64,000 bases of DNA from an uncultured Anaerolineaceae bacterium (GTDB lineage: Bacteria; Chloroflexota; Anaerolineae; Anaerolineales; UBA11579), in NCBI GenBank assembly GCA_964572455.1, contig CAZNFL010000007.1, positions 1,672 to 65,671 of the forward strand, given 5' to 3'. Positions 254 to 28,482 of the stretch are shown here, piece by piece (position 1 is the first letter of the stretch; each line of letters starts with the position of its first letter). The translations under genes and the position numbers were made by a program. A model generated the notes under the pieces. The model was given only the letters and a program-made list of their open reading frames with translations, was not told the DNA's origin and did no database searches.

Positions 254-2625
254 TTTTCTTTAAAATACGCCACGGTCACCCCTTCGCCGCCTTCGTGGGG
301 CGCGGCGTAATCGAAGCGCTCGATATATTTGCGCTTGCCCAGCTCCTTGCGCACCATCTCGCGCAGCACGCCGGTACCCTTGCCATGGATGATGCGCGCC
401 AAGCGCAGCCCTGCTGCATTGGCGGCATCCAAATAACGATCTAAGGCGTCCTCGGCATCCTCGAAACGCTGGCCGCGCAGCGAGATCTCGTTCCCGGGCG
501 ATGCGGCCACCAGCGGCAGGCTGCCCCAGTTTTCCCTCTGGTCTCCGTTGGTTGGCCCTTCCGGCAGCAATTCCAAGTCACCCAGCCGCGCCCGGGCGCG
601 CAGGGCGCCGATCTGCACCTCAGCTTCCTCTTCGCCCAGGGCGATAACGATACCGCGGTGCCCCAGGCTGCGCACCTGCACCGCGTCGCCCAGCCGCAGC
701 CCGCGGTCGGGCGCTGATTCGGGCACCGCCCTGCGCCGCGCCGGCGTCTCCACTTTTTCTTCCAGTTCGGCGGCCGCAGCCTGCACGGCTTGCATTTGCT
801 GCAATGGCTGCCGGGCGCGGGCTAATTCGGCCCGCAATTTACCGATCTCCTCACTCAGGCTGGCCAGTTCCTCTTCTGCCTGCTTGCGTGCTTTTTCCAG
901 GATCTGCACACGCTCGTCTTCGATCTTCTCCAGGCGTTCTGCCAGCTCAGCTTTCGCAGCCTGCGCTTCCTGTTCGGCCTCTTCGGCTCGGCTGCGCGCT
1001 TGCCGCGCCCGCTCCCGCTCCCGGTGGATCTCGTCCAGCAGGTCTTCGGCCTTCAATTCGCTAGGGTCAATGGCGTTGCGCGCCATCTCGATTACTTCTT
1101 TGGGCAAGCCCAAGCGCGTGGCAATCGCCAGAGCGTTAGACCGACCGGGTAGCCCCACCACCAAATGGTAGGTCGGCGCCAAGGTCTTGAGGTCAAATTC
1201 TACGCTGGCGTTGACCACCCCTTTGGTGGCGTGGGCGTAGGCTTTCAATTCCGGATAATGGGTGGCCACCAGGGTTGTGATGCCGCGCTTCACTAGATGA
1301 TCGAGCAAGGCTCGGGCCAGCGCGGCACCCTCTTGGGGATCGGTGCCGGCCCCTAATTCATCAAGGAGCACCAGGCAGCCTTGGTCAGCTGCCTGCAAAA
1401 TTCGCGCAATGTTGGTGATGTGCCCCGAAAAGGTGGATAGCGATTGTTCGATGGATTGCTCGTCGCCTATATCGGCATAAATATTGTCGAAGAACGAGAT
1501 CTGGCTGCCTGCGTCCGCGGGAATGTGCATCCCGCTCTGGCCCATCAGGGCCAGCAAGCCCACCGCTTTTAGCGTCACCGTTTTGCCGCCGGTGTTAGGT
1601 CCGGTGATCACCAGGCAATAGTTTTCCGGGAAGAGTTCGATATCCAGCGAGACCACCTTGGCTGGATCAAGCAAGGGATGCCGCACTCCGAACAAACGCA
1701 GCACCACGCCGGGGTGCGGCTGATCTTGCTTTGTCCGCATAGGCAACAGGTCGGGCCGGTTGGCGCGCAGTTCGTTTGCATATTTGGCGCGCGCAAAGGT
1801 CAAGTCCAGGCTGGCCAGCCCCTCTAGCACCGCGCTGATCTCGGCGGCATACTCGCTCACCAGATCGCTAAGCTCCAGCAAGATACGCTGTTCCTCATCC
1901 CGTTGAGCCAGTTGCAGTTCTCGCCAGCGATTGTTAAGCTCCACCACTTGCAAGGGCTCTACAAACAGTGTGGCGCCCGAAGAGGATTGGTCGTGAACGA
2001 TAGCTTTTACTCGCGAGCGCGCTTCGGCTTTGACCGGCAACACATAGCGCCCGTCGCGTTGGGTAATAAGCGGCTCTTGCAAGGCCTTAGCAAACGGCTC
2101 GGTGGTCAGTAATTTCTGCATGCGCGCCAGCAAACGCTCGTGGGCGATGCTCAATTCGCTGCGGATCGAAGCCAGCTTGGGCGAGGCGGCATCCAGGATC
2201 TCGGCCCGGGCGGAGATAGCTTTGCTGATGGCGTCCACCACGCCAGCGGGGCTGGGAAACCCAGCGGCGATGGCGGCCAGTAATGAGTATTTCGCGGCCT
2301 CATCGGCTAGTTGGCGCGCCAAGTTGCGCCCGGCGACCAGCGTGCCTTTTACATCCAGCAACTCGGCCGGGGTGAGCGCCAACCCGCGCCTGGCGTTCTC
2401 CAAATAAGCTCGCAGGTCGCGGGCGCCGCCAATGCTGGTTTGCGGCTGGTCCTTTAGTAGCCCGCGCGCCTCGGAGGTTAGATCCAGCCCGCGCTGGGCC
2501 TCCGCAAGGTCTTGCGCCGGGCGCAATTGGCGGGCGCGTTCCGCCGACAGGGAGAAGGCCGTGTGCCGCGCTAAACGCTCCAATACTTTCGGGTATTCGA
2601 GCGTATTGAGCGTTTTTTCGTCCAT
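250..2625 (-). CDS. mutS2: Endonuclease MutS2 (MutS ATPase + C-terminal Smr domain)
   Basis: Walker A GPNTGGKTVTLK, Walker B LVLLDELGAGTDP, long charged coiled coil, C-terminal Smr-type IHGKGTGVLR. Start set at ATG 2625 because MDEKTLNTLEYPKV resembles MutS2 N-termini. The longest ORF reaches 2694. Confidence 0.9.
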   Translation of the reverse strand: MDEKTLNTLEYPKVLERLARHTAFSLSAERARQLRPAQDLAEAQRGLDLTSEARGLLKDQPQTSIGGARDLRAYLENARRGLALTPAELLDVKGTLVAGRNLARQLADEAAKYSLLAAIAAGFPSPAGVVDAISKAISARAEILDAASPKLASIRSELSIAHERLLARMQKLLTTEPFAKALQEPLITQRDGRYVLPVKAEARSRVKAIVHDQSSSGATLFVEPLQVVELNNRWRELQLAQRDEEQRILLELSDLVSEYAAEISAVLEGLASLDLTFARAKYANELRANRPDLLPMRTKQDQPHPGVVLRLFGVRHPLLDPAKVVSLDIELFPENYCLVITGPNTGGKTVTLKAVGLLALMGQSGMHIPADAGSQISFFDNIYADIGDEQSIEQSLSTFSGHITNIARILQAADQGCLVLLDELGAGTDPQEGAALARALLDHLVKRGITTLVATHYPELKAYAHATKGVVNASVEFDLKTLAPTYHLVVGLPGRSNALAIATRLGLPKEVIEMARNAIDPSELKAEDLLDEIHRERERARQARSRAEEAEQEAQAAKAELAERLEKIEDERVQILEKARKQAEEELASLSEEIGKLRAELARARQPLQQMQAVQAAAAELEEKVETPARRRAVPESAPDRGLRLGDAVQVRSLGHRGIVIALGEEEAEVQIGALRARARLGDLELLPEGPTNGDQRENWGSLPLVAASPGNEISLRGQRFEDAEDALDRYLDAANAAGLRLARIIHGKGTGVLREMVRKELGKRKYIERFDYAAPHEGGEGVTVAYFKEN

Positions 2626-2792
2626 CGCGGCCGAGTCTATCACAGCGCTCTCGGCGGGCCTCAACGCGGCCTCTTTGTGTGTCTTTTCACGCAAAAATTA
2701 ATGTGCTGTTGATTCCTCATAACAAACCTTGTAGAATCACGCCAAAGCGCTGTCTAGCCAACCTGCGCACAGCACAGCTGGCAGGGACCTAC

Positions 2793-3104
2793 GTGGACGT
2801 CATCAAGGTTTCAGGTTCCTCTCGAACATCAGCAGTCGCCGGAGCTATTGCCGGTGTTTTCCGCGAAAATAAACGCGCCGAAGTTCAAGCCATTGGCGCC
2901 GGGGCTGTAAACCAGGCCATTAAGGCGCTTATTTTGGCGCGCGGCTACCTGAAGGAAGACGGCTATGACGTCATCTGCGCACCCGAATTTGCCGATGTAG
3001 ATATCGACGGCAAAGTGCGCACCGCCATTAAGCTGGTCGTCGTATTGCGCGGGGATCCCGCAGATCAGGAAGCCCCACCGCCAACGAAAAACGCCGCTGA
3101 ATGA
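2793..3104 (+). CDS. spoVS: SpoVS-like protein (stage V sporulation protein S family)
   Basis: VIKVSGSSRTSAVAGAIAGVFRE..AEVQAIGAGAVNQAIKALILARGYL..VICAPEF..VDIDG..RTAIKLVV follows the SpoVS pattern. Start moved to GTG 2793. The ATG at 2679 would add 38 unrelated residues overlapping the mutS2 5' end. Confidence 0.8.
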   Translation: MDVIKVSGSSRTSAVAGAIAGVFRENKRAEVQAIGAGAVNQAIKALILARGYLKEDGYDVICAPEFADVDIDGKVRTAIKLVVVLRGDPADQEAPPPTKNAAE

Positions 3105-3115
3105 GCGGCGTTTTT
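3087..3115. terminator. Intrinsic terminator hairpin, usable in both directions
   Basis: AAAAACGCCGCT-gaat-gAGCGGCGTTTTT: GC stem flanked by an A-run and a T-run. It overlaps the spoVS stop and faces the converging kinase gene. Confidence 0.6.
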
Positions 3116-3136
3116 ATTTCTGGCCATTGACGATCT

Positions 3137-3799
3137 TCAATCGGTAAAGCTGCGCACCTCTTCAGGCGAAAACACTACTTCCTCTTTCCCCATCAGCTTA
3201 TCAGCCATCTTGTGGGTGATCAATTCCAAATGGCCATTGTGCGCTACGAAGTTAATCTCATCTGTTGGCACGGTCAGTACAGGGCACAAAGCAAAATTGG
3301 CAATCCATTGCTCGTAAAGCCCGTTTAGCTGCTCCAGGTATTCCGCCTGGATGGTGCTTTCAAAATCGCGCCCGCGCGTAGCGATGCGGCGCTGCAGGGT
3401 GGGCACCGACGCGCGCAAATAGATAACCAGGTCCGGAGGCCTCAGCATGTCGCACAGCAGGCGATAGAGTTTGCTGTATGTCGAATAATCGCGTTCATTG
3501 AGCTGTCCCTGGCGGAACAGGTTGGCGGCAAAGATCTCGGCGTCCTCATAGACCGACCGGTCTTGCACAACCGACTTGGGATCTTCGAGCAGGGACAAAT
3601 GCATGCGCAGGCGGTGGCTGAGGAAGAAGACCTGGGAATGGAACGCCCAGGCTTTCATGTTCTCGTAGAAATCTTCGAGATAAGGATTTTCAGCCACAGG
3701 CTCGTAATACGGCTGCCAGCCAAGCCGGGCGCACAATTTGCCGACCAGCGTAGATTTGCCCACGCCGATATTGCCCGCCACAGCCACAAAATGCTTCAT
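3137..3799 (-). CDS. Deoxynucleoside kinase (dCK/dGK family), copy 1
   Basis: P-loop GNIGVGKST, DRSVYEDAEIF motif, Arg-rich lid RRIATRGRDFE. Its start codon overlaps the upstream stop in ATGA (3796-3799). Confidence 0.85.
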   Translation of the reverse strand: MKHFVAVAGNIGVGKSTLVGKLCARLGWQPYYEPVAENPYLEDFYENMKAWAFHSQVFFLSHRLRMHLSLLEDPKSVVQDRSVYEDAEIFAANLFRQGQLNERDYSTYSKLYRLLCDMLRPPDLVIYLRASVPTLQRRIATRGRDFESTIQAEYLEQLNGLYEQWIANFALCPVLTVPTDEINFVAHNGHLELITHKMADKLMGKEEVVFSPEEVRSFTD

Positions 3800-10234: not shown

Positions 10235-11719
10235 TCAGCTACTCTCCTTTTTAAGTTTGCGCTGGGCTATGGCTAGTTGCTTTTCCAGCTCGCCGCGCAA
10301 TTTATCGGGGTTGGCTTTGCCACCTGAAACTTTGACTACCTGCCCGAACAACCAATTGAGCACGGGGGCATTGCCACCAAAATAATCGGTTACTTGCTGG
10401 GGATGCTGCTCCAGCACTTTCCGCACCCAGGCGCCCAGTTGCTTGGCATCCGAGACCTGCTTCAGGCTGCGCGCATTGATGATTTTATCCGGCTTGCCGC
10501 CCTTAGCAAACAGTTCCGCCAAGACTACTCTGGCACCGGCCGGGTTGAGTTCGCCCTCAGCCAGCAGGTCGAGCAGCTTGGCTAATTCATCCGGGCCAAA
10601 TAGCAGGTCACCGGTTTCAGCGCCGGCCTCGTTCATCAGGCTGAACAGCGGCCCGCTGACCCAATTGGCTACCGCTTTTGGCTCGGCCTTTTTGGCCGCC
10701 AGCACGGCGGCCTCATAGAACTCGGCCATCTCGCGTTCGGCGGCCAGCACGCCGGCGTCATAGGCGCTCAGTGTATAGTCGCGCATAAAGTGCGCTTGCT
10801 TGGCGTGCGGCAGTTCCGGCAGGCCGGCGTGGATCTCATCCACCCAGCTTTGCTCCACCACGAGTGGCGGTAAGTCAGGCTCGGGGAAGTAGCGATAATC
10901 TTCGGCGACTTCTTTGGAGCGCTGCGCCAGGGTGACGCCGCGCACATCGTCCCAGCCCAGGGTCTGCTGCTGCACAGCTTTGCCCTGATCAGCCAGGGCA
11001 GCCTGGCGCTTCAGCTCGTAGCTGGTGGCGCGCTCCAATGAACGGAAGCTATTGAGGTTTTTGACCTCTACCCGCGTGCCGAATTCGCCGCTTCCAACTG
11101 GGCGAATGGAAATATTGGGTTCGATGCGCAGCAAACCCTTCTCCAAATTGCCGGAGTTCACCCCCACGTAGCGCAGGATGCTGCGCAGGGCATAGGCGCA
11201 ATTACGCACGGCTTCCACGGAATGCAACTCGGGTTCGGTGACGATCTCCAGCAGCGGCACGCCGGAGCGGTTGAGGTCTACCAACGAGTAGCGTTGGGCG
11301 CCTTTTTCGACGTGGGTCAGCTTGCCAGTATCTTCTTCGATATGCACACGGCGGATGCCGACGCGCACTTCGCCCTCCGCGGCGGCCACCAGCAGCCAGC
11401 CATCCGTGGCTAGCGGCTGCTCGTATTGCGAGATCTGGTAACCCTTAGGCAGGTCCGGGTAAAAATAACTTTTGCGGGCGAAGATGCTGGTGGTGTGCAC
11501 CTGGCAATTCAGCGCCAGGGCCACGCGCAGGGCATATTCCACCGCAGCGCGATTGATGACCGGCAGCATGCCGGGCATGCCGGCGCACACCGGGCACACG
11601 GCCACGTTAGGCTCCTGGTGGGTGGAATCCACAACCGGGCAATCGCAAAACATCTTGGAGCGCGTCTCCAGGACAGCATGCACTTCGAGCCCGATGACGG
11701 GTTGGTATTGTTGGCTCAT
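10235..11719 (-). CDS. gatB: Asp/Glu-tRNA amidotransferase subunit B
   Basis: YQPVIGLEVHAVL, CPVCAGMPGMLPV, IEEDTGKL, and a C-terminal GatB/YqeY helical domain. Confidence 0.95.
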   Translation of the reverse strand: MSQQYQPVIGLEVHAVLETRSKMFCDCPVVDSTHQEPNVAVCPVCAGMPGMLPVINRAAVEYALRVALALNCQVHTTSIFARKSYFYPDLPKGYQISQYEQPLATDGWLLVAAAEGEVRVGIRRVHIEEDTGKLTHVEKGAQRYSLVDLNRSGVPLLEIVTEPELHSVEAVRNCAYALRSILRYVGVNSGNLEKGLLRIEPNISIRPVGSGEFGTRVEVKNLNSFRSLERATSYELKRQAALADQGKAVQQQTLGWDDVRGVTLAQRSKEVAEDYRYFPEPDLPPLVVEQSWVDEIHAGLPELPHAKQAHFMRDYTLSAYDAGVLAAEREMAEFYEAAVLAAKKAEPKAVANWVSGPLFSLMNEAGAETGDLLFGPDELAKLLDLLAEGELNPAGARVVLAELFAKGGKPDKIINARSLKQVSDAKQLGAWVRKVLEQHPQQVTDYFGGNAPVLNWLFGQVVKVSGGKANPDKLRGELEKQLAIAQRKLKKESS

Positions 11720-20151: not shown

Positions 20152-20832
20152 TTATACTTCCAAGCTTTCGCCGGAAATGAGCACGTGCACTTTGGTTTTG
20201 GTTTCTTTTCCCACGCGCTGCGCCCAGACTTGTGGATCCTGCTTGATCAGATCCCAGGTGCTGTAGTGCACGGGAACCACCTGCTTGGGTTCGAGTAGTT
20301 TGACCGCCTTCAGCGCGTCGTCCGGCCCCATGGTGTAGTGTCCGCCGATCGGCAGCACCGCCAAATCCAGACCTACCTCGCCGATCAGCTTCATGTCGGA
20401 GAACATAGCGGTGTCACAGGCCAGGTAGATCTTCTTGCCCTCGGCTTCGATCAGCAAGCCGGCGGCGCTGCCGCCGCTGGTTCCGTCCGGCAGCTTGGAG
20501 CCGTGTTCCGCGATAGTGAGTTTGAGCTGGCCGAAGGGATGCTGCTGCCAACCCCCGATTGGCTGCCCGTGGGTCTTCAGCCCCTTGTCCTCAAACCAAC
20601 TGGCGATCTCGGGGTTGCTGATCACCAGGGCGCCGGTGCGCTTGGCCAGCGGCTCCACATCCTGCACATGGTCGTAATGCCCATGGCTGACCAGGATGAA
20701 GTCGGCCTCAACATGGTCCACCGTGGTGGCGGCGGCCGGGTTATCGGCAAAGTAGGGGTCTATGACCACGGAGAATCCGCCTATTGAAAGGCTAGAGGTA
20801 CCGTGTCCTAACCATGTGTAGGTGATCGTCAT
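20152..20832 (-). CDS. Metallo-beta-lactamase-fold hydrolase (UPF0173-like)
   Basis: LVSHGHYDH zinc motif; 226 aa; MTITYTWLGHGT start typical of this family. Confidence 0.8.
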   Translation of the reverse strand: MTITYTWLGHGTSSLSIGGFSVVIDPYFADNPAAATTVDHVEADFILVSHGHYDHVQDVEPLAKRTGALVISNPEIASWFEDKGLKTHGQPIGGWQQHPFGQLKLTIAEHGSKLPDGTSGGSAAGLLIEAEGKKIYLACDTAMFSDMKLIGEVGLDLAVLPIGGHYTMGPDDALKAVKLLEPKQVVPVHYSTWDLIKQDPQVWAQRVGKETKTKVHVLISGESLEV

Positions 20833-21196
20833 CGCGGCTCCATTAAATAGACGCCTAGTTATAACAGAAGCTTATATCTTAATTATTCTCCTATATCTAT
20901 TAGGTAGTTCTCTTTATAGTAATAATAGTAGTGCCTGGGGATAAGCGGAATAAGACTGTGGACGATCCAAACACCCCCCATAGGAGAGCTTTCTAAGACC
21001 TGCCGACCCCAGGCATGTGCCAACTACCCAACGAAACGAAGTCTTTTTGTTGTGTACAGAAAACTAACAAAGTGGCGTTTCTACGGGGAAAGGGCCTAAG
21101 CAGGCTAGTTTTCAACAAAAGTATAGAAGTTATCCCCCGGTTGTAAACCACCATACACCGACAGGCTACGAGGGAACTGCCCCAAAAAACCCAGGG

Positions 21197-21205
21197 TTAT
21201 CCACA
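21197..21205 (+). promoter_or_regulatory. Perfect DnaA box TTATCCACA
   Basis: Exact consensus 9-mer inside the 12-mer GTTATCCACAGG. Confidence 0.7.
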
Positions 21206-22607: not shown

Positions 22608-23258
22608 ATGGGGCCGCTAACCAAAGGCTCCAGGGAGAAAGCAATTAACATTTCAAGCATCAAACCGATCAAAGCCAGTCGCAATTCCGCTGTTGGACGC
22701 ACCGTTTTGGCCGCCCTGCTGCTGGCCGTCCTCGCCCTGGCCATCTTTGTAGGTGGTACTCAGGACGCGCAAGCCCAGGTTGGCATTACCGCCAATTACA
22801 ACTACATATCCAACGGTTCCTTCGAAAGTGGGCCCAGCTTACCCGCCAGCTGGTTTGGGGCATTTCTAACATCCGTGGATAAGCGCGTATGCAACCAGAG
22901 TTATGCAGGGTCCTGCTCCTTCAAAATGGTGGGCGATAATACCCTCAAATATCTGGGTCAATGTATTGGCCTTACGGGCACCATTGCCGGCCAAGAGTTT
23001 AAATTAAAGGCCTGGACGAAAGGCAAATCGATTAATCTTGGAGGAGGGGAGGCAACCGCCTACGTGGAATTCTTTAACCTGGGTGCCTCCGTCAACTTTG
23101 AAGTGTTCGCTATACCTGGCGGAACCTCACCATGGACTTCGCACCAGGTGTCGGCGACCGCGGCCGCAGACTATGATGAGATATGTATATTGTTGGTATT
23201 TGATGCCGACAGCGGTAAAATATGGTTCGATAAAGTTTCACTGGTGTATCTTCCATAG
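22608..23258 (+). CDS. Small secreted or anchored protein with a carbohydrate-binding-module-like jelly roll
   Basis: Hydrophobic anchor VLAALLLAVLALAIFV, then NGSFESG..W.. and ..KIWFDKVSL, as in CBM4_9-type domains. Start uncertain: first ATG of the plausible part is 22608; the track ORF starts at 22428. Confidence 0.55.
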   Translation: MGPLTKGSREKAINISSIKPIKASRNSAVGRTVLAALLLAVLALAIFVGGTQDAQAQVGITANYNYISNGSFESGPSLPASWFGAFLTSVDKRVCNQSYAGSCSFKMVGDNTLKYLGQCIGLTGTIAGQEFKLKAWTKGKSINLGGGEATAYVEFFNLGASVNFEVFAIPGGTSPWTSHQVSATAAADYDEICILLVFDADSGKIWFDKVSLVYLP

Positions 23259-23284
23259 CGCCGCGAATAAAAACATTCTTAAAA

Positions 23285-23320
23285 CAAAAAAAGAGGCCGA
23301 GAACCGGCCTCCTTTTTTTG
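23285..23320. terminator. Intrinsic terminator (bidirectional shape)
   Basis: AAAAAAAA-GAGGCCG-agaac-CGGCCTC-CTTTTTTT. Confidence 0.7.
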
Positions 23321-23427
23321 CCCTTGGCGGAATGTATCCGCCATGGGCAGGTTGGCTGCGTTGCAATGCAACGCCAGGGCATCTGCCGGCTATGCCGGGT
23401 AACGATCCTTCAGCAGGGTTAGAAAAA

Positions 23428-23655
23428 TTACAAGCCGCGCTTAGCTGCTAGTTCTTCCAACTTCTGGACATTAATTTCCAGTTCGCGAAAGGCAGCTTCG
23501 ATGGGGCGCCTTGCTGCTCATATCCACGCCAGCCAGCTTGAACAGGTCCATCGCATAGCGCGAGCCGCCGGCCTGCATGAAGCGGTGATAACCTGCCGTG
23601 GCGCCCTCCTCGCCGGCCATAATGCCGGTAGGAACCAACCCCCCCTGGGCAGGCG
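23428..23655 (-). pseudogene. Remnant of the C-terminal ~75 codons of an M3B oligoendopeptidase F, with a frameshift
   Basis: ..EEGATAGYHRFMQAGGSRYAMDLFKLAGVDMSS.. then, in another frame, PIEAAFRELEINVQKLEELAAKRGL*. This parallels the intact pepF C-terminus at 58165 (..LLSSGGSRSPEEILKRAGINM...VDELEKLSAK). The frames switch at the G4 run 23503-23506. Confidence 0.6.
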
Positions 23656-23714: not shown

Positions 23715-25163
23715 TTACTCTGTTGCAGCCCCTTCATGAAAGATCTCCGGGTTTTCTTCTCCCTCGACGTGCAGGATACCCACCAAGCCGCGCTCCAAGC
23801 GACTCAAGGCGTGGTCAACCAGGATGTAGTCGCCGGGCACATCCAGGGTAAATTCCACTATCCAAGCCCCGCCGGGCGCCACCGAAATAGTCTGGACGTC
23901 GGTGAGCGCATCCGCAGCGAGGGAGCCAAAGGGATAGACCTTATCGAAGATCTCGCCGATGACATGGAAGGAGGATGTAAAGTTGGGGCCGCCCACGCCG
24001 AAGTAGATGCGCACAGTGTCACCTACATTGGCGGTCAACCTGTTTTCTTCCGCGGTCAGCCCCCGCGAGGCGCCGTTGAACACCAGGTATTCCGGGGTCT
24101 CATCGAGCATCTTGTCCACGCTAAAGGTGAGTTGGCCCTTAGCCCCAAAAGCCTCCTCCGTGTAGATCTCCCCCTGCATCACATAGAACTCGCGGTCCAC
24201 AGGAGGCAAACCGCCTGCGGGCTCGATCAGGATCAGCCCATACATGCCACTGGTTATGTGATGAGCCACGCTAGGCGTTGCGCAGTGATAAACATAGATG
24301 CCCGGATTCAGGGCCTTGAAGGTGACGACCTTGGTCTCGCCGGGCATCACCTGCGTGTATACCGCGCCGCCACCGGGCCCGTTAACCGCGTGCAAATCCA
24401 CAGAATGGGTGAAGGAGCTGTCCATCTCGTTGGTCATGGTGATTTCGACCGTGTCGCCGATCTGGGCGCGAATGAAAGGTCCAGGCACCGTGCCATTGAA
24501 GGTGAAATAAGGGTAGGTCGCACCCTCGGCCAGCTGGCCCTCCACTTCCTGCGCAACCAATTCCACCTGCACCAGTTGCGGCCCGCGGCCGCCTAAAGGT
24601 CCGGGCAGGTCGCTGGGATTTTTGATGATGGAAGTCCCCGCGGCAACCTCCGATAGCTCTCCAACCTGCAGCATTCCTACCATGCCAGCCGCGCGGTGCC
24701 CGGGAATGCCGCAGTAATATTCGAAGGTGCCTTCCTGGTCGGCTACAAAAGTAATCACGCGTTCTTCATTCAACTGCGTCACCGATCCAGTCGCCACGCT
24801 GAACTCGTCAATGCGTAAATCGTGCTCGATTGCCTGGGCGTTGATCAGAGTTATCTGCACTACGTCGCCGAGGTTGACGACCAACGTTGGATTGGCCACC
24901 CCATCTATCTCCCCGTCGACGCCATAGAACAGCAGGCTGTACCCATCACCGCCCGCCGCCAAAGTAAATTCGACATCCGCCGGTCCCAAATCCACATTGG
25001 TACCTTCGGCAGGGGCAACCTCCCCTGCACCGGGCGCGTTTATTTGAGTCTCCAATACCCCTACGGTGGCCTGCAAATTCGTCACATCGCTGGATTCAAT
25101 ACAAGCCGGGACGGCCAGAGCCAGGACTGCCAAAACAGCAAAGATTGGAGCTTTTCTCCTCAT
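23715..25163 (-). CDS. nirK: Copper-containing nitrite reductase with an extra N-terminal cupredoxin domain; lipoprotein
   Basis: Lipobox LALAVPAC. N-terminal type-1 Cu-like YYCGIPGHRAAGMVGM. NirK core THSVDLHAVNG, YVYHCATPSVAHHITSGMYG, two cupredoxin domains. Confidence 0.85.
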   Translation of the reverse strand: MRRKAPIFAVLAVLALAVPACIESSDVTNLQATVGVLETQINAPGAGEVAPAEGTNVDLGPADVEFTLAAGGDGYSLLFYGVDGEIDGVANPTLVVNLGDVVQITLINAQAIEHDLRIDEFSVATGSVTQLNEERVITFVADQEGTFEYYCGIPGHRAAGMVGMLQVGELSEVAAGTSIIKNPSDLPGPLGGRGPQLVQVELVAQEVEGQLAEGATYPYFTFNGTVPGPFIRAQIGDTVEITMTNEMDSSFTHSVDLHAVNGPGGGAVYTQVMPGETKVVTFKALNPGIYVYHCATPSVAHHITSGMYGLILIEPAGGLPPVDREFYVMQGEIYTEEAFGAKGQLTFSVDKMLDETPEYLVFNGASRGLTAEENRLTANVGDTVRIYFGVGGPNFTSSFHVIGEIFDKVYPFGSLAADALTDVQTISVAPGGAWIVEFTLDVPGDYILVDHALSRLERGLVGILHVEGEENPEIFHEGAATE

Positions 25164-25362
25164 GGATCACCTCTTGGAATGCTTCTGACGAATCAGAAGT
25201 TGAAGTTCTATCGAATCTAAGGGGAATAAGGGCTCGATCAAAAGGACATTTACCCTCAATAGTTAAGACATTCGTAATGTAATAATTAACGAAGCGGCAA
25301 TCGCCTCCAGAACAAGTTTATGAAGGTTTTTAGTGCCTGGTCTGCGACTCACACTTTGGCGA

Positions 25363-25614
25363 TCAGCCCTGGCGGCTTTTGGCCTGCTCGTCGCTGTTGT
25401 CCACCGTAGCGGCCCAGCCCACGAAACCGCCCAGCTCGCCCAGGCTTACGGCCTGCTTTTCATAGACCTCGAACCAATCCGCCGGCTTGGCAGCCGTGAT
25501 CAGCTTGCCGTTGTACTTCTTCAGCTTGGCAGGTCCTTCTTGGCTTTTTCGAATTGCTTGTCCCAGGCCCCCAGGTGGCTTCGATAGGGACGTCGGAGCG
25601 GTTAGGGTGGGCAT
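25363..25614 (-). CDS. Hypothetical small protein (83 aa)
   Basis: ORF with native-looking high-GC codon usage. Start set at ATG 25614 (MPTLTAPTS..). The track extension to 25710 runs into AT-rich non-coding DNA. Confidence 0.4.
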   Translation of the reverse strand: MPTLTAPTSLSKPPGGLGQAIRKSQEGPAKLKKYNGKLITAAKPADWFEVYEKQAVSLGELGGFVGWAATVDNSDEQAKSRQG

Positions 25615-25773
25615 GTTAGTTCCCTTGGTTAGATGGTTGGAATGGTTTATTGTACTAAGCGTGGAGCAGGGTGCCCAAACGCCACACTTAGTATTTTCGT
25701 ATAAAATCATCTCACCTAGGGAAAAATGGAAATCCTAATTTTAATTGGGGTTATTTGAGCAATAATAGCATAC

Positions 25774-26484
25774 TTGAATTCTCGGAATGAGGGGGCGAGA
25801 CGCGCTCGTCACCCACGTACAAATCAAAGCCAACGACCTACTCCCACTTCAACTCCGAGGACCGAACGAAATCCTAATCTCTATCGCCCATCCACAGTTG
25901 CTAGACCCGCTAAGGCATCTATTGTTTTTAGTACCGTCGGGGCTGAGGCGAAGCTAACCACAGATTTCCAATTAAAAGATCTAATGGATGCATATACCGG
26001 TGCACCCCTTCAAGCGTCTCTAGGTCTTTTCCAGTGTCAGAAGTGCAAGGTTTTTTACCAGTCTCACAGCATGGAGGTTATTAGAAGCGAAAACAGCGGC
26101 CAGTGCGTGGCTTGTTTAAGCAAAAATATACTTTATGTATCTATATTACATGAAGCTCGCGGCCGTAATGCAGATGTCAGTGTCGTTACTATGGCCAACT
26201 ACCGGCAACACCTCGGTCACGTCGCTACTTTTGAAGAATTGGTGTATACAATTCTACAAAGCCGGCGTGGCACCGATTATGCCGTCATGTTTGAAAACGC
26301 TCGGTGGACGCGTGGTTTCAAAATGGTTGTTTTCAAAGGGGATGTTAGTAAAATTGGTGGAAGCTCGCTTCTTTACCAATTAGTTGGGAAAACCGTTCGC
26401 GTACGCGGCCTTCTAGTCAATCACAACAGGTACGGATATCAAATCATTGTTAGCGAGAGCGGAATGATATTGAGTGTAAAATGA
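25774..26484 (+). CDS. Islet gene 1: basic Pro/Thr/Arg-rich linker + CxxC..CxxC zinc ribbon + OB-fold-like beta domain
   Basis: FQCQKCKVFY..(17)..GQCVACL zinc ribbon. C-terminal V.T.A......G..ATFEE.V......RG.DYAVMFE......F.MVVFKGD........L.GKTVRVRGLL..H..YGYQIIV resembles OB-fold modules. An in-frame ATG at 25726 with an AGGGA RBS lies upstream, separated by one TGA. The stop overlaps the next start as ATGA. Confidence 0.6.
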   Translation: MNSRNEGARRARHPRTNQSQRPTPTSTPRTERNPNLYRPSTVARPAKASIVFSTVGAEAKLTTDFQLKDLMDAYTGAPLQASLGLFQCQKCKVFYQSHSMEVIRSENSGQCVACLSKNILYVSILHEARGRNADVSVVTMANYRQHLGHVATFEELVYTILQSRRGTDYAVMFENARWTRGFKMVVFKGDVSKIGGSSLLYQLVGKTVRVRGLLVNHNRYGYQIIVSESGMILSVK

Positions 26485-26867
26485 AGTGGAAAAACAGAAA
26501 CCCCAATTTATCTGACGAATTTTCACGTCTCACGGGACTGGATCCGTACGAATTATTAAATGTTCCAAGAAATGCGACGAAAGACGAGGTAAAAACCGCC
26601 TACTTAACTCTAGTGAAGGTTTATCATCCAGACAAGGCTGACCCGTTCATGAAGGCGCACAACGAGCAAATTATTAAGCTCATAAATTTAGCTTACGGAA
26701 AATTAATTGGTAGGTTTGCGGAGAACAATGACGAATCTATGTGTTACAAACGCGCGTTCGCGCAATCATGTCACATTTGGAATCAGATTATCGTGAATTG
26801 GGGGGCTTGCTTATTGGTCATGTTTGGCAAAATCAAGGTCATTCTCAGAATCCAAGCGCACCACTAA
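26481..26867 (+). CDS. Islet gene 2: stand-alone J-domain (DnaJ-like) protein
   Basis: DPYELLNVPRNATKDEVKTAYLTLVKVYHPDKADP...INLAYGKL is a complete J domain with the HPD tripeptide. The last ~40 codons of the ORF overlap the JAMM reading frame and are probably not genuine. Confidence 0.75.
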   Translation: MKWKNRNPNLSDEFSRLTGLDPYELLNVPRNATKDEVKTAYLTLVKVYHPDKADPFMKAHNEQIIKLINLAYGKLIGRFAENNDESMCYKRAFAQSCHIWNQIIVNWGACLLVMFGKIKVILRIQAHH

Positions 26868-27188
26868 TAATTATCAATGAAATCTGTTAGTAGCATTAGT
26901 TATCGAAATTCTGCTGTCGCACTAGAAATGAGCTCCGAAATATGGAATCAATTAGCTGGACGTAATCACGAAGACCTTGTTGTCGGTTGGTACCACAGCC
27001 ACCCGAACCTCGGGGCATTTTTTAGTGGCACGGATCGAAAAACACAAAAAGCATTTTTTAATCATGCCTATTCATTGGGTTGGGTAATTGATCCAATTAA
27101 AAAAGAGCAGAAGGTCTTTGTTGCAGGTGAATCAATTGAATATGGCCATCCAATTATGGTGCTTGAGCATGGTTTGGCGCTGGCGTAA
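26741..27188 (+). pseudogene. Islet gene 3: JAMM/MPN+ metallopeptidase, split over two reading frames
   Basis: The frame of 26741-26890 reads VLQTRVRAIMSHLESDYRELGGLLIGHV.. (catalytic Glu context E.GG.L.G). The frame of 26877-27188 reads ..EDLVVGWYHSHPNLGAFFSGTD (H-x-H-x7-S-x2-D). Joining them needs a +1 shift near 26876-26888. Confidence 0.75.
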
Positions 27189-27447
27189 ATATATTAATAT
27201 CGGAGGGGGCGTCCGTGGTTCTGTATCTCGGAGCGGTGTTGGGTGGAGCTGGGGATTTCCAGGATTTAGAATTGGAAAAGGGGCAGACGGATCTAACTGG
27301 ATTTCATTCGGAATTCCCGGATTGGGCCTTTATTTTACGAAGCGCTTTAATAGACCTTATTGGAATCGGGCAGCTAGCATAGAATATGAAAATACTGCAA
27401 GTAAAATGCGAAAAACGAAAGTTAAGAGTTGGAAAAATATTAAATAG
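27169..27447 (+). CDS. Islet gene 4: DUF4236-like small protein
   Basis: MVWRWRKYINIGGGVRGSVSRSGVGWSWGFPGFRIGKGADGSNWISFGIPGLGLYFTKRF matches my recollection of the DUF4236 pattern (RFRKSI.LG.GVRLN.SKSG.S.S.G..G.R...G.....S.GIPGTGL). It overlaps the JAMM stop by 20 nt. Confidence 0.6.
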   Translation: MVWRWRKYINIGGGVRGSVSRSGVGWSWGFPGFRIGKGADGSNWISFGIPGLGLYFTKRFNRPYWNRAASIEYENTASKMRKTKVKSWKNIK

Positions 27448-27501
27448 CTGCCCTCCACCCTTGCGAACATTTTTATCAACTTGCTTCTAAATCACTTGTA
27501 A

Positions 27502-27577
27502 GGTGCCCCAGGTGGGACTCGAACCCACAACCTCAGCCTTAGGAGTGCTTTGCTCTATCCATTTGAGCTACCGGGGC
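27502..27577 (-). tRNA. tRNA-Arg (anticodon CCU) with a weak anticodon stem
   Basis: Minus strand: GCCCCGG-TA-GCTC-AAATGGATA-GAGC-A-AAGCA-CTCCTAA-GGCTG-AGGTT-GTGGG-TTCGAGT-CCCAC-CTGGGGC-A-CC. Acceptor, D and T arms are canonical. The anticodon stem has only 3 Watson-Crick pairs flanked by A/G mismatches. Confidence 0.8.
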
Positions 27578-27702
27578 GTGCCAACGCCAAAAGCTGGCGT
27601 TGTCTTAAGAGTTTCTACTCGGTTTCACCGAATAACGAAACTCCACGACTGCGAGTTTACACCGTCCAAGGTCCCACGTCTAGGCGTCCGGCGTCAGAGG
27701 CT

Positions 27703-28482
27703 TTACCGGCCCTTCCATTCCGGTTTGCGCTTCTCGCTAAAAGAGCGCATGCCTTCCTTCTGGTCTTCGGTGGCGAACAGGAAGTAGAAGGCCTGGCGCT
27801 CTTCGGCGATGCCGTCCGCCAGATGCGTTTCCTGGGCGCGGTTCACCGCTTCCTTACCCAGGCGCACCGCCAGCGGAGCTCGGGAGGCGATCTCGCTAGC
27901 CAATTCGAGAGCTACGTCCAGGTAACGCTCGACTGGGACTACGCGATTGACCAGCCCATAGCGCAGCGCCTCTTCGGCGGTCAGGTTGCGGTTGTTCAGC
28001 ACCATCTCCATGGCCAGCGCCTTACCTACCGCCCGCGTCAGGCGCTGGGTGCCGCCCGCCCCAGGGATCACGCCCAGGTTGATCTCGGGCTGGCCAAAGC
28101 GAGCCGTCTCGGAGGCCACGATCATGTCGCAAGACAGGGCTAGTTCGTTGCCGCCGCCCAGGCACCAGCCGGAAACCGCGGCAATCACGGGCTTGGAGAT
28201 CTTGCGGATACGGTCAAAGGGCGAGATATGCCCTTTGAGCAACAGCTCGATCGAGGAAGACTCCGCCATCTCCTTGATGTCGGCGCCGGCGGCGAAAGCA
28301 CGCGCGTCACCGGTGAGCACGAAGGCGCCGATGGCCGCGTCCGCGTCCAGCTTTTCCAGCGCGTCCATCAGCTCGAGCATCAGCGGCGTATTGAGCGCGT
28401 TCATCGCCTCGGGCCGGTTGAGGCGCAGCAAGGCCACCCGCCCGCGGATCTCGGTGAGGATAAGAGAATTGGAGTTAAGCAT
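27703..28482 (-). CDS. Enoyl-CoA hydratase/isomerase (crotonase) family
   Basis: FVLTGDARAFAAGADIKEM and GWCLGGGNELALSCDMIVASETARFGQPEINLGVIPGAGGTQRL. Confidence 0.9.
   Translation of the reverse strand: MLNSNSLILTEIRGRVALLRLNRPEAMNALNTPLMLELMDALEKLDADAAIGAFVLTGDARAFAAGADIKEMAESSSIELLLKGHISPFDRIRKISKPVIAAVSGWCLGGGNELALSCDMIVASETARFGQPEINLGVIPGAGGTQRLTRAVGKALAMEMVLNNRNLTAEEALRYGLVNRVVPVERYLDVALELASEIASRAPLAVRLGKEAVNRAQETHLADGIAEERQAFYFLFATEDQKEGMRSFSEKRKPEWKGR

Follow-up and report, generated by a model that had tools for sequence, protein, structure and literature searches.

Does a compact set of coupled genes beside a tRNA gene form a system of its own, or is it the remainder of a larger one? 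The question is raised by a GC-poor islet in a 64,000-nucleotide (nt) stretch of contig CAZNFL010000007.1 from an uncultured Anaerolineaceae bacterium (the whole stretch is referred to here as the window). Four same-strand genes of the islet encode a zinc-ribbon/OB-fold protein (gene 1), a J-domain protein, a JAB/JAMM peptidase, and a DUF4236 protein, and an initial annotation of the DNA had proposed that they form a self-contained new cassette. This proposal was not borne out, since about 30 other loci carry genes for an E1, a ubiquitin-like protein (Ubl), and an E2 between the J-domain and JAB genes. The islet is very probably the inactivated relic of a horizontally acquired, seven-gene Ubl conjugation operon from which approximately 2.0 kb has been deleted.

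Remnant genes and the deletion junction

The four domain calls of the initial annotation held, with significant Pfam matches for three products and with AlphaFold modeling and structural matches for gene 1. Gene 1 (positions 25727 to 26484, plus strand), on the evidence of tblastn and AlphaFold, is a pseudogene for a protein with an N-terminal transmembrane helix, a Pro/Ser-rich disordered linker, a CxxC-x19-CxxC zinc ribbon, and a C-terminal OB fold. Residues 1 to 275 of intact homologs aligned to positions 25726 to 26481 in tblastn searches at 50 to 52% identity (E value of 5e-91), and the alignment runs through an in-frame TGA. No Pfam family matched gene 1. A search with the repaired product returned 216 homologs of about 250 amino acids (aa) with end-to-end query cover, and the four cysteines of the CxxC-x19-CxxC motif were invariant in alignments of 30 to 60 homologs. 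In the AlphaFold model of the family (pLDDT of 83), the transmembrane helix is followed by a disordered stretch of about 85 residues, a small element that binds Zn, and a folded C-terminal domain, for which the best structural matches were the OB folds of class IIb aminoacyl-tRNA synthetases (the Asp-, Lys-, and Asn-tRNA synthetases) and of RPA. The zinc-ribbon/OB-like label thus stands after the structure prediction that the annotation had called for.

Profile hidden Markov model searches, suggested in the same place, supported the other three assignments. The J-domain gene (26481 to 26731, plus strand; ancestrally 83 codons) matched Pfam DnaJ (PF00226) with an E value of 4.5e-12 and 46.3 bits against a cutoff of 27.8, which places it in the J-domain family. 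Residues 1 to 79 of 83 aligned by tblastn to 26481 to 26717 with 68% identity, and the HPD motif, invariant in 26 orthologs, can be read in the window copy. The JAB gene is represented by an Rpn11-like 3' fragment, codons 39 to 190 (26732 to 27188, plus strand; tblastn and Pfam), with matches to Prok-JAB (PF14464; E value of 1.7e-8) and JAB (PF01398; 3.8e-7) that both lie above the curated cutoffs. Its catalytic motifs E..GG.L.G and HSHPNLGAFFSGTD (HxHx7Sx2D) are legible, and tblastn placed residues 39 to 88 at 26732 to 26881 and residues 88 to 190 at 26880 to 27185. The fragment is thus predicted to be a JAMM/MPN+ member by descent and an incomplete enzyme, with codons 1 to 38 lost and the frame shifted. 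The DUF4236 gene (27169 to 27447, plus strand; 92 codons) is seemingly intact; it matched PF14020 across the whole profile (positions 1 to 55 of 55; E value of 5.2e-14, 52.9 bits against a cutoff of 27), which assigns it to that family, and residues 1 to 93 of 94 aligned by tblastn to 27169 to 27444 with 53% identity. A homolog search with the DUF4236 protein gave 2 matches, too shallow a set for a useful model.

The translational coupling described in the initial annotation is also present. Gene 1 and the J-domain gene are joined by an ATGA at 26481 to 26484, and the JAB gene (stop codon at 27186 to 27188) and the DUF4236 gene (ATG at 27169) overlap by 20 nt, an arrangement shared with L001, L044, and L046, whose operons are intact. 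Tight coupling on one strand, four significant domain calls, and legible J and JAMM catalytic motifs are what would be expected if the four genes were a functional, self-contained cassette in which DnaK recruitment is coupled to (iso)peptide cleavage without E1, E2, or Ubl. The comparison with other loci and the lesions of the window copy argue against this.

In the parent operon, the gene order is gene 1, J-domain gene (83 to 84 aa), ThiF-family E1 (371 to 374 aa), Ubl (83 to 92 aa), UQ_con E2 (172 to 208 aa), and JAB (188 to 191 aa), and a DUF4236 gene (76 to 94 aa) is added as the seventh in some loci. Locus counts rest on the approximately 30 loci with enough flanking DNA to judge. The order from gene 1 through JAB was present in all of these other than the window and L009, a contig from the Logan assemblies that is described below. 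The ordered array was found in 27 of 30 species-representative genome loci (one genome per species; tblastn with reference proteins), as well as in metagenomic contigs and in one prophage. The four loci nearest to the window copy (L001, L043, L044, and L046) all have the seven-gene form, in which the DUF4236 gene overlaps or follows JAB. Genes for the J-domain protein, the JAMM peptidase, and gene 1, and in some loci DUF4236, therefore do co-occur, as the initial annotation had asked, but they do so with E1-Ubl-E2; among the loci scanned, E1-Ubl-E2 is missing only from the window and L009, and no four-gene variant was found beyond these. No E1, Ubl, or E2 homolog was detected by tblastn in the islet or in the full 64 kb. 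The earlier statement that none of these accompanies the JAMM gene is thus true of the window copy, but their absence is secondary and due to a deletion.

The junction of this deletion was located at 26728 to 26737 (plus strand) by comparison with relatives at the J/E1 boundary. An ATGA occupies 26728 to 26731, and the sequence reads ATG ACG AAT (M-T-N) followed by CGA ATC TAT GTG (R-I-Y-V). In relatives, the E1 starts with MTDRYQRH (MTD or MIN, then RY), and JAB codons 38 to 42 encode (V)RIYAL. The first three codons of E1 apparently survive in the window, fused to JAB codon 39, so that the start of the E1 gene is still at the junction, a point against a four-gene cassette. The M-T-N remnant overlaps JAB codons 39 and 40 (CGA ATC), and CGAATC may have been a microhomology between both parents. 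The deletion spans approximately 2.0 kb and removed E1 from about codon 4 onward, together with the complete Ubl and E2 genes and the first 38 codons of JAB. The missing segment, about 2026 nt when measured on L001, and the 1721-nt remnant add up to 3747 nt; the intact operon of L044 measures 3752 nt.

Three further lesions were identified. From the sequence and its alignment, an in-frame TGA at 25757 to 25759 (plus strand) interrupts the transmembrane helix of gene 1 (MEILILIGVI*AIIAYL, where the asterisk is the stop); it replaces a Trp carried by most homologs (consensus, IGxIW), which fits a change of TGG to TGA. The J-domain gene has a -1 frameshift at about 26718 to 26719, four codons ahead of the ancestral TGA stop at 26729 to 26731 in frame 2. 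Because of this frameshift, the annotated J open reading frame (ORF) has 128 rather than 83 codons and runs to 26867, and the normal stop is lost. Frame 2 of the window ends in GEQ and a stop (after GRFA), compared with EGHK or EGNE and a stop in relatives, and the ATGA overlap is the same. In the JAB gene, a +1 insertion near 26885 (atc-t-gtt) splits frame 2 (26732 to 26887) from frame 0 (from about 26886). Taking out the extra base restores LIIINEI-VSSISYRN, compared with LIILFEA-VPSVDYRN in L001. The caution in the initial annotation that the copy carries a stop and frameshifts and may be decaying was well founded, since the TGA is real and the JAB frames are split; its account of the lesions missed the internal deletion of about 2 kb. 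Recoding of TGA was considered and rejected, as the JAB frame break lies amid TAA and TAG stops, beyond rescue by TGA reassignment; the ordinary Anaerolineales-like host genome, in which the enoyl-CoA hydratase of the window clusters with proteins from Anaerolineales, also disfavors it. Together with the truncated and frameshifted JAB, the stop codon that replaces a conserved Trp of gene 1, and the J-domain gene without its normal stop, the approximately 30 loci in which E1-Ubl-E2 is present make a functional four-gene cassette highly improbable.

Could the deletion instead have been made by an assembler? The window comes from a metagenome-assembled contig of 69,750 nt, and low-GC islands often assemble poorly, so that E1-Ubl-E2 might be present in the organism and have been collapsed or skipped. 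The Logan contig L009 (run SRR6868922; 4143 nt) is 100% identical to window positions 24149 to 28291 and spans the junction; it is probably another assembly of the same sample. No repeat that could cause a collapse is found at the junction, and the three other inactivating lesions accompany it, as a real pseudogene predicts. We regard an assembly artifact as very improbable.

In its present state, the window copy cannot conjugate or deconjugate a Ubl, since E1, Ubl, E2, and the N terminus of JAB are gone and the nonsense codon and two frameshifts are present. What the islet could still yield is limited to a polypeptide with the J domain, the DUF4236 protein, and an OB protein truncated at its N terminus. 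Inactivation looks recent, because gene 1 of the window keeps 31 of the 32 family-invariant residues.

The parent operon and its predicted activity

Homologs of the operon occur in at least eight bacterial phyla or classes. The hosts include Verrucomicrobiota, Cellvibrionaceae, Vibrio, Photobacterium, Pseudomonas, Cupriavidus, Paraburkholderia, Sphingobium, Novosphingobium, Luteibacter, Dyella, Pseudooceanicola, Nitrospirales, Omnitrophota, Flavobacteriaceae, Desulfobacterales, and SAR116. NZ_LLEI02000053 and NZ_CP195111 are examples of the Vibrio and Pseudomonas loci. At a 50% identity level, 374 representatives of gene 1 were counted, 123 of them at an E value of 1e-30 or less, and the Ubl has 1273 clusters. 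The J-domain gene was present in nearly every operon locus examined, and the GC content of the operon was below that of its flanks in all seven loci checked.

The small gene between E1 and E2 has no precomputed Pfam match. Its AlphaFold model (pLDDT of 92.6) matched ubiquitin, SUMO, ISG15, and Caldiarchaeum ubiquitin in Foldseek searches at TM scores of 0.75 to 0.83 and E values of about 1e-5. Sequence-only tests were not significant; these were Pfam (YukD and Rad60-SLD, E values of 0.01 to 0.04), a profile search of PDB sequences, and hhalign against ubiquitin. The invariant C terminus reads QPVLVAG, with LVAG as its last four residues, and most members end at that Gly. As modeled, with a beta-grasp fold and a C-terminal Gly, the product is a ubiquitin-fold protein, an assignment that concerns the parent family only. 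Tails of 4 to 7 residues past the Gly (such as NQSL or GMAHGGQ) are found in the DUF4236-containing clade nearest the window, in the Ubl genes of L001 (3267 to 3536) and L004 (8125 to 8403). The tails of the L001 and L004 Ubls imply obligatory processing by JAB in those members only.

Residues expected for catalysis are conserved in the other parent proteins, with invariance scored over 26 to 30 loci. The HPD of the J domain is invariant, as are GxGxxG, a CxxC, Cys183 (RYSCGW), and Cys251 in E1, Asn90 and Cys98 in E2, and H127, H129, and D140 (HxH..D) in JAB. Among PDB sequences, the nearest to E1 are the active adenylation domain of eukaryotic Uba1/Uba6 and MoeB/ThiF/MccB, the nearest to E2 are UBE2T/Ubc13, and the nearest to JAB are the Caldiarchaeum Rpn11-like protein 6fjv (E value of 8e-10) and Rpn11. 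Genuine Ubl conjugation by the intact operon is likely. In such a pathway, E1 would adenylate the C-terminal Gly of the Ubl, which would be handed to the invariant Cys98 of E2 and then onto target lysines. JAB would trim the tails of pro-Ubls and reverse conjugates. The HPD-containing J domain would recruit host DnaK and stimulate its ATPase at the site of action, and the membrane Zn-ribbon/OB protein may serve as a sensor, as an adaptor, or as a target or substrate.

Two features of the parent proteins were observed beyond the catalytic residues. The J-domain protein and JAB both open with M-(K/R)-W-x-(N/D/E)-(I/L/V) in 24 of 24 loci compared (for example, L006:6822-6890 and L006:9071-9140), and Trp3 of this motif is invariant in both families. 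The window retains it on the J-domain gene (MKWKNRN; 26481 to 26500), and the JAB copy is lost. This shared MKWxN/D start may be a common docking peptide or a signature of translational coupling. In addition, the Vibrio-type E2 of 208 aa (L006:8448-9074 and other loci with E2s of about 208 aa) carries an additional zinc ribbon of the CxxC...CxxC form at its C terminus (CTHCETS...CPRCRK), and the E2 of 172 to 176 aa in the clade nearest the window is without it.

The initial annotation had also asked whether related loci sit in defense islands or prophages, and such contexts were found. In L042:1-16795 (IMG/VR UViG_2521172724_000002), a complete six-gene operon lies in a P22-like prophage, where it is bordered by umuD/umuC-like genes and by a BsuBI/PstI restriction-modification pair; a portal gene is located upstream of the operon and a GH108 lysozyme gene downstream. 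The intact seven-gene operon of L046 has a divergent Phage_integrase gene on one side and a RepB_primase/PriCT/AAA_25 gene on the other (2617 to 3300 and 10447 to 11493), which suggests that it is carried on a small integrative element. A Vibrio island with the operon contains S-pyocin/immunity, RadC, and DUF2787 genes and an HTH-M78 regulator. In the verrucomicrobial locus L004 (1 to 5223 and 9891 to 12762), the operon stands amid genes for an FGE-sulfatase, a protein kinase, a VWA protein, a ClpB-like AAA+ protein, and PP2C, a neighborhood that resembles the multicomponent conflict systems of Kaur et al. 2020 (PMC7159879). Because these contexts are mobile or conflict related, a role of the parent operon in defense against phages or other mobile elements is proposed, and we lean toward it.

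When plasmids were searched with the protein encoded by Vibrio gene 1, the only match was a partial one of 53 residues; it came from three Vibrio plasmids of about 180 kb (NZ_CP072682.1, NZ_CP071847.1, and NZ_CP024629.1), in which a hypothetical protein is 58% identical to the Zn-ribbon segment (residues 106 to 158). The ribbon module of gene 1 may occur in another context.

Insertion of the islet at tRNA-Arg(CCT)

The sharp drop in GC content noted in the initial annotation is evident. The islet genes (25727 to 27447) have a GC content of 0.431, compared with 0.581 for the remainder of the window; values were 0.40 to 0.47 across approximately 25.55 to 27.5 kb and 0.56 to 0.66 on either side. 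The islet faces the 3' end of a tRNA-Arg(CCT) gene (27502 to 27577, minus strand; ARAGORN, Rfam score of 58.6 bits), the single tRNA gene in the window, and an Rfam search of the whole window found no RNA gene beyond it. The description of the islet as tRNA flanked is correct in that the tRNA 3' end adjoins it, but this is so on one side only.

A related Anaerolineales contig of about 81% nucleotide identity (L041) preserves the site without the islet. There, a hydratase gene is followed by tRNA-Arg(CCT), and an unrelated spacer of about 190 nt separates the tRNA from the region upstream of a copper-oxidase-like gene. Because the 3' end of tRNA-Arg(CCT) is the exact limit of homology between L041 and the window and the site is empty in L041, the window carries an insertion of about 2.2 kb, roughly 25290 to 27501, the segment that a blastn comparison with the window found missing from L041. 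Adjacency to a tRNA 3' end and an empty site in a relative are features of a tRNA-targeting island, and the low GC content and the empty site bear out the suggestion that the islet was horizontally acquired. The operon would have landed directly 3' of tRNA-Arg(CCT). About 2.0 kb would then have been lost, probably by a short-homology deletion, and the one nonsense codon and two frameshifts would have been acquired before or after it.

With the machinery dead, one or more of the surviving ORFs may have been kept for host use, a possibility that is compatible with the relic. This could apply to the polypeptide with the J domain, to the DUF4236 protein, or to an OB protein with a new start at TTG 25774 or ATG 25984. 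Gene finders call ORFs of 166, 128, 103, and 55 aa in the islet, the J domain keeps its HPD, the 92-codon DUF4236 frame is intact, and the invariant residues of gene 1 are conserved as described above. The small number of lesions and the good conservation would be expected just as much from recent inactivation, no such reduced set is found in any other genome, and a promoter and terminator scan of the islet gave no signal above the shuffle background. We consider exaptation unlikely.

Several points weigh against reading the islet as the relic of a seven-gene operon. No intact copy closer than about 50 to 70% protein identity was found, and because of this the ancestral junction sequence is a reconstruction, as are the microhomology and the -1 shift of the J-domain reading frame. 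With gene 1 so well conserved and the J-domain and DUF4236 genes apparently intact, the leftovers may have a residual or exapted function. L009 may share the sequencing run of the window, in which case it rules out an error specific to the assembler but leaves room for one specific to the sample. The arrival of the islet is not explained by an integrase or an att repeat: no integrase-sized ORF is located in or beside it, and a search for direct and inverted repeats found no copy of the tRNA 3' end, only short chance matches. Finally, the function proposed for the parent (defense, DnaK dependence, and the role of the OB protein) is read from domains and neighborhoods only.

Other features near the islet were as follows. 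A minus-strand ORF of 83 codons (25363 to 25614; GC content of about 0.55) lies within the segment absent from L041 and may be cargo of the insertion or a host gene lost in L041. It matched no Pfam family and has no homolog in any operon locus, and it was rejected as an operon member for the latter reason. On the 5' side of tRNA-Arg, about 61 nt (27582 to 27642) that include a hairpin-forming sequence, GCCAGCTTTTGGCG, are not in L041. Two further GC dips in the window (0.45 to 0.47), at 20750 to 21200 and 23000 to 23450, lie outside the islet.

Relation to known ubiquitination systems

The initial annotation had stated that the gene set matches no named JAMM-containing system. The statement stands in a changed form: it is the intact parent, rather than the four-gene set, that fits none of Bil, Bub, and CBASS by the features tested. 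When PADLOC and NCBIfam were run on the intact operon, they returned generic adenylation, JAB, and DnaJ matches only, none past a curated cutoff, and no named system.

Bil systems are defined by the order Ubl-E2-deubiquitinase-E1 and by an E1 (BilD) with IAD, AAD, and CYS domains (PMC10557695; PMC11601603). Like Bil types I and II (BilA Ubl, BilB E2, BilC JAB, and BilD E1), the parent has separate E1, E2, Ubl, and JAB genes; its Ubl has a conserved Gly and in some members a short tail for JAB removal, and its contexts are mobile or defense related. It most likely shares the mechanism as well, with a thioester relay from E1 to E2, conjugation to lysines, and processing by JAB. All four Bil genes have counterparts in the parent operon, whereas the window lacks E1, Ubl, and E2. 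The parent differs from Bil in its order (E1-Ubl-E2-JAB) and in its E1 of about 372 aa, which appears to have one adenylation domain, as residues 3 to 173, approximately, align to single-domain ThiF/MoeB and to the AAD only of Uba1. The PADLOC match of BilD to this E1 was partial (1.2e-8). The parent E2 is of the UQ_con (PF00179)/UBC type rather than the BilB/CEHH type, without a PADLOC BilB match at an E value of 0.01. The J-domain and transmembrane/Zn-ribbon/OB genes and the facultative DUF4236 gene are extra to Bil.

In content and sequence, the nearest analog of the parent is the operon of "Candidatus Caldiarchaeum subterraneum," which encodes ubiquitin, E1, E2, a small RING E3, and an Rpn11 homolog. 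The best PDB match of the parent JAB is 6fjv, and the Ubl model matched 6fno_D and 6fj7 at TM scores of about 0.8. In contrast to this operon, no RING E3 gene was detected in the parent, whose sole extra zinc element is the mononuclear CxxC..CxxC ribbon of gene 1; the parent also has J-domain and membrane OB partners and is bacterial and mobile. The Caldiarchaeum genome paper mentions DnaJ only outside the ubiquitin operon.

Bub systems (formerly 6E/DUF6527) likewise include sparse E1/E2/Ubl operons on mobile elements, some of them at tRNA genes (PMC11601596). They are defined by the DUF6527 serine protease BubE, by fused Ubl-E2 and JAB-E1 or E2-E1 proteins, and by oxyester chemistry (PMC11601603). 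In the parent, by contrast, the genes are separate, the E2 Cys is invariant, and no DUF6527 or fusion is present in the loci with called genes. Type II CBASS gave weak PADLOC matches (Cap2 E1-E2, 5e-17 over the adenylation core; Cap3 JAB, 1e-5). Unlike type II CBASS, the parent has no CD-NTase cyclase or effector in any neighborhood, its E1 and E2 are unfused, and it has a dedicated Ubl.

A full-text literature search found no paper that joins a J domain or DnaJ to a bacterial E1/E2/JAB operon; prior cataloguing by Burroughs et al. 2009/2011 is possible. We tentatively suggest, with less confidence than we place in conjugation itself or in a defensive role, that the parent operon is an uncharacterized family of eukaryote-like bacterial ubiquitination systems with a J co-chaperone and a membrane OB protein as obligate partners, in which Hsp70 would be coupled to a Ubl, probably against phages or mobile elements.

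As far as the window is concerned, the seemingly novel, minimal JAMM/J-domain system is a pseudogenized relic, and the window copy is unsuitable for pursuit as a four-gene unit. The value of the relic is as a pointer to a conserved ubiquitination-like operon of six or seven genes in prophages and islands, of which an intact copy merits follow-up. The E1, E2, Ubl, and JAB of the parent are nearer in appearance to eukaryotic and Caldiarchaeum proteins than to Bil, Bub, or Cap2/3. If the J-domain link is functional, the operon would provide a tractable bacterial model of cooperation between chaperones and Ubl tagging and would contribute a further branch to what is emerging about the bacterial origins of ubiquitination.

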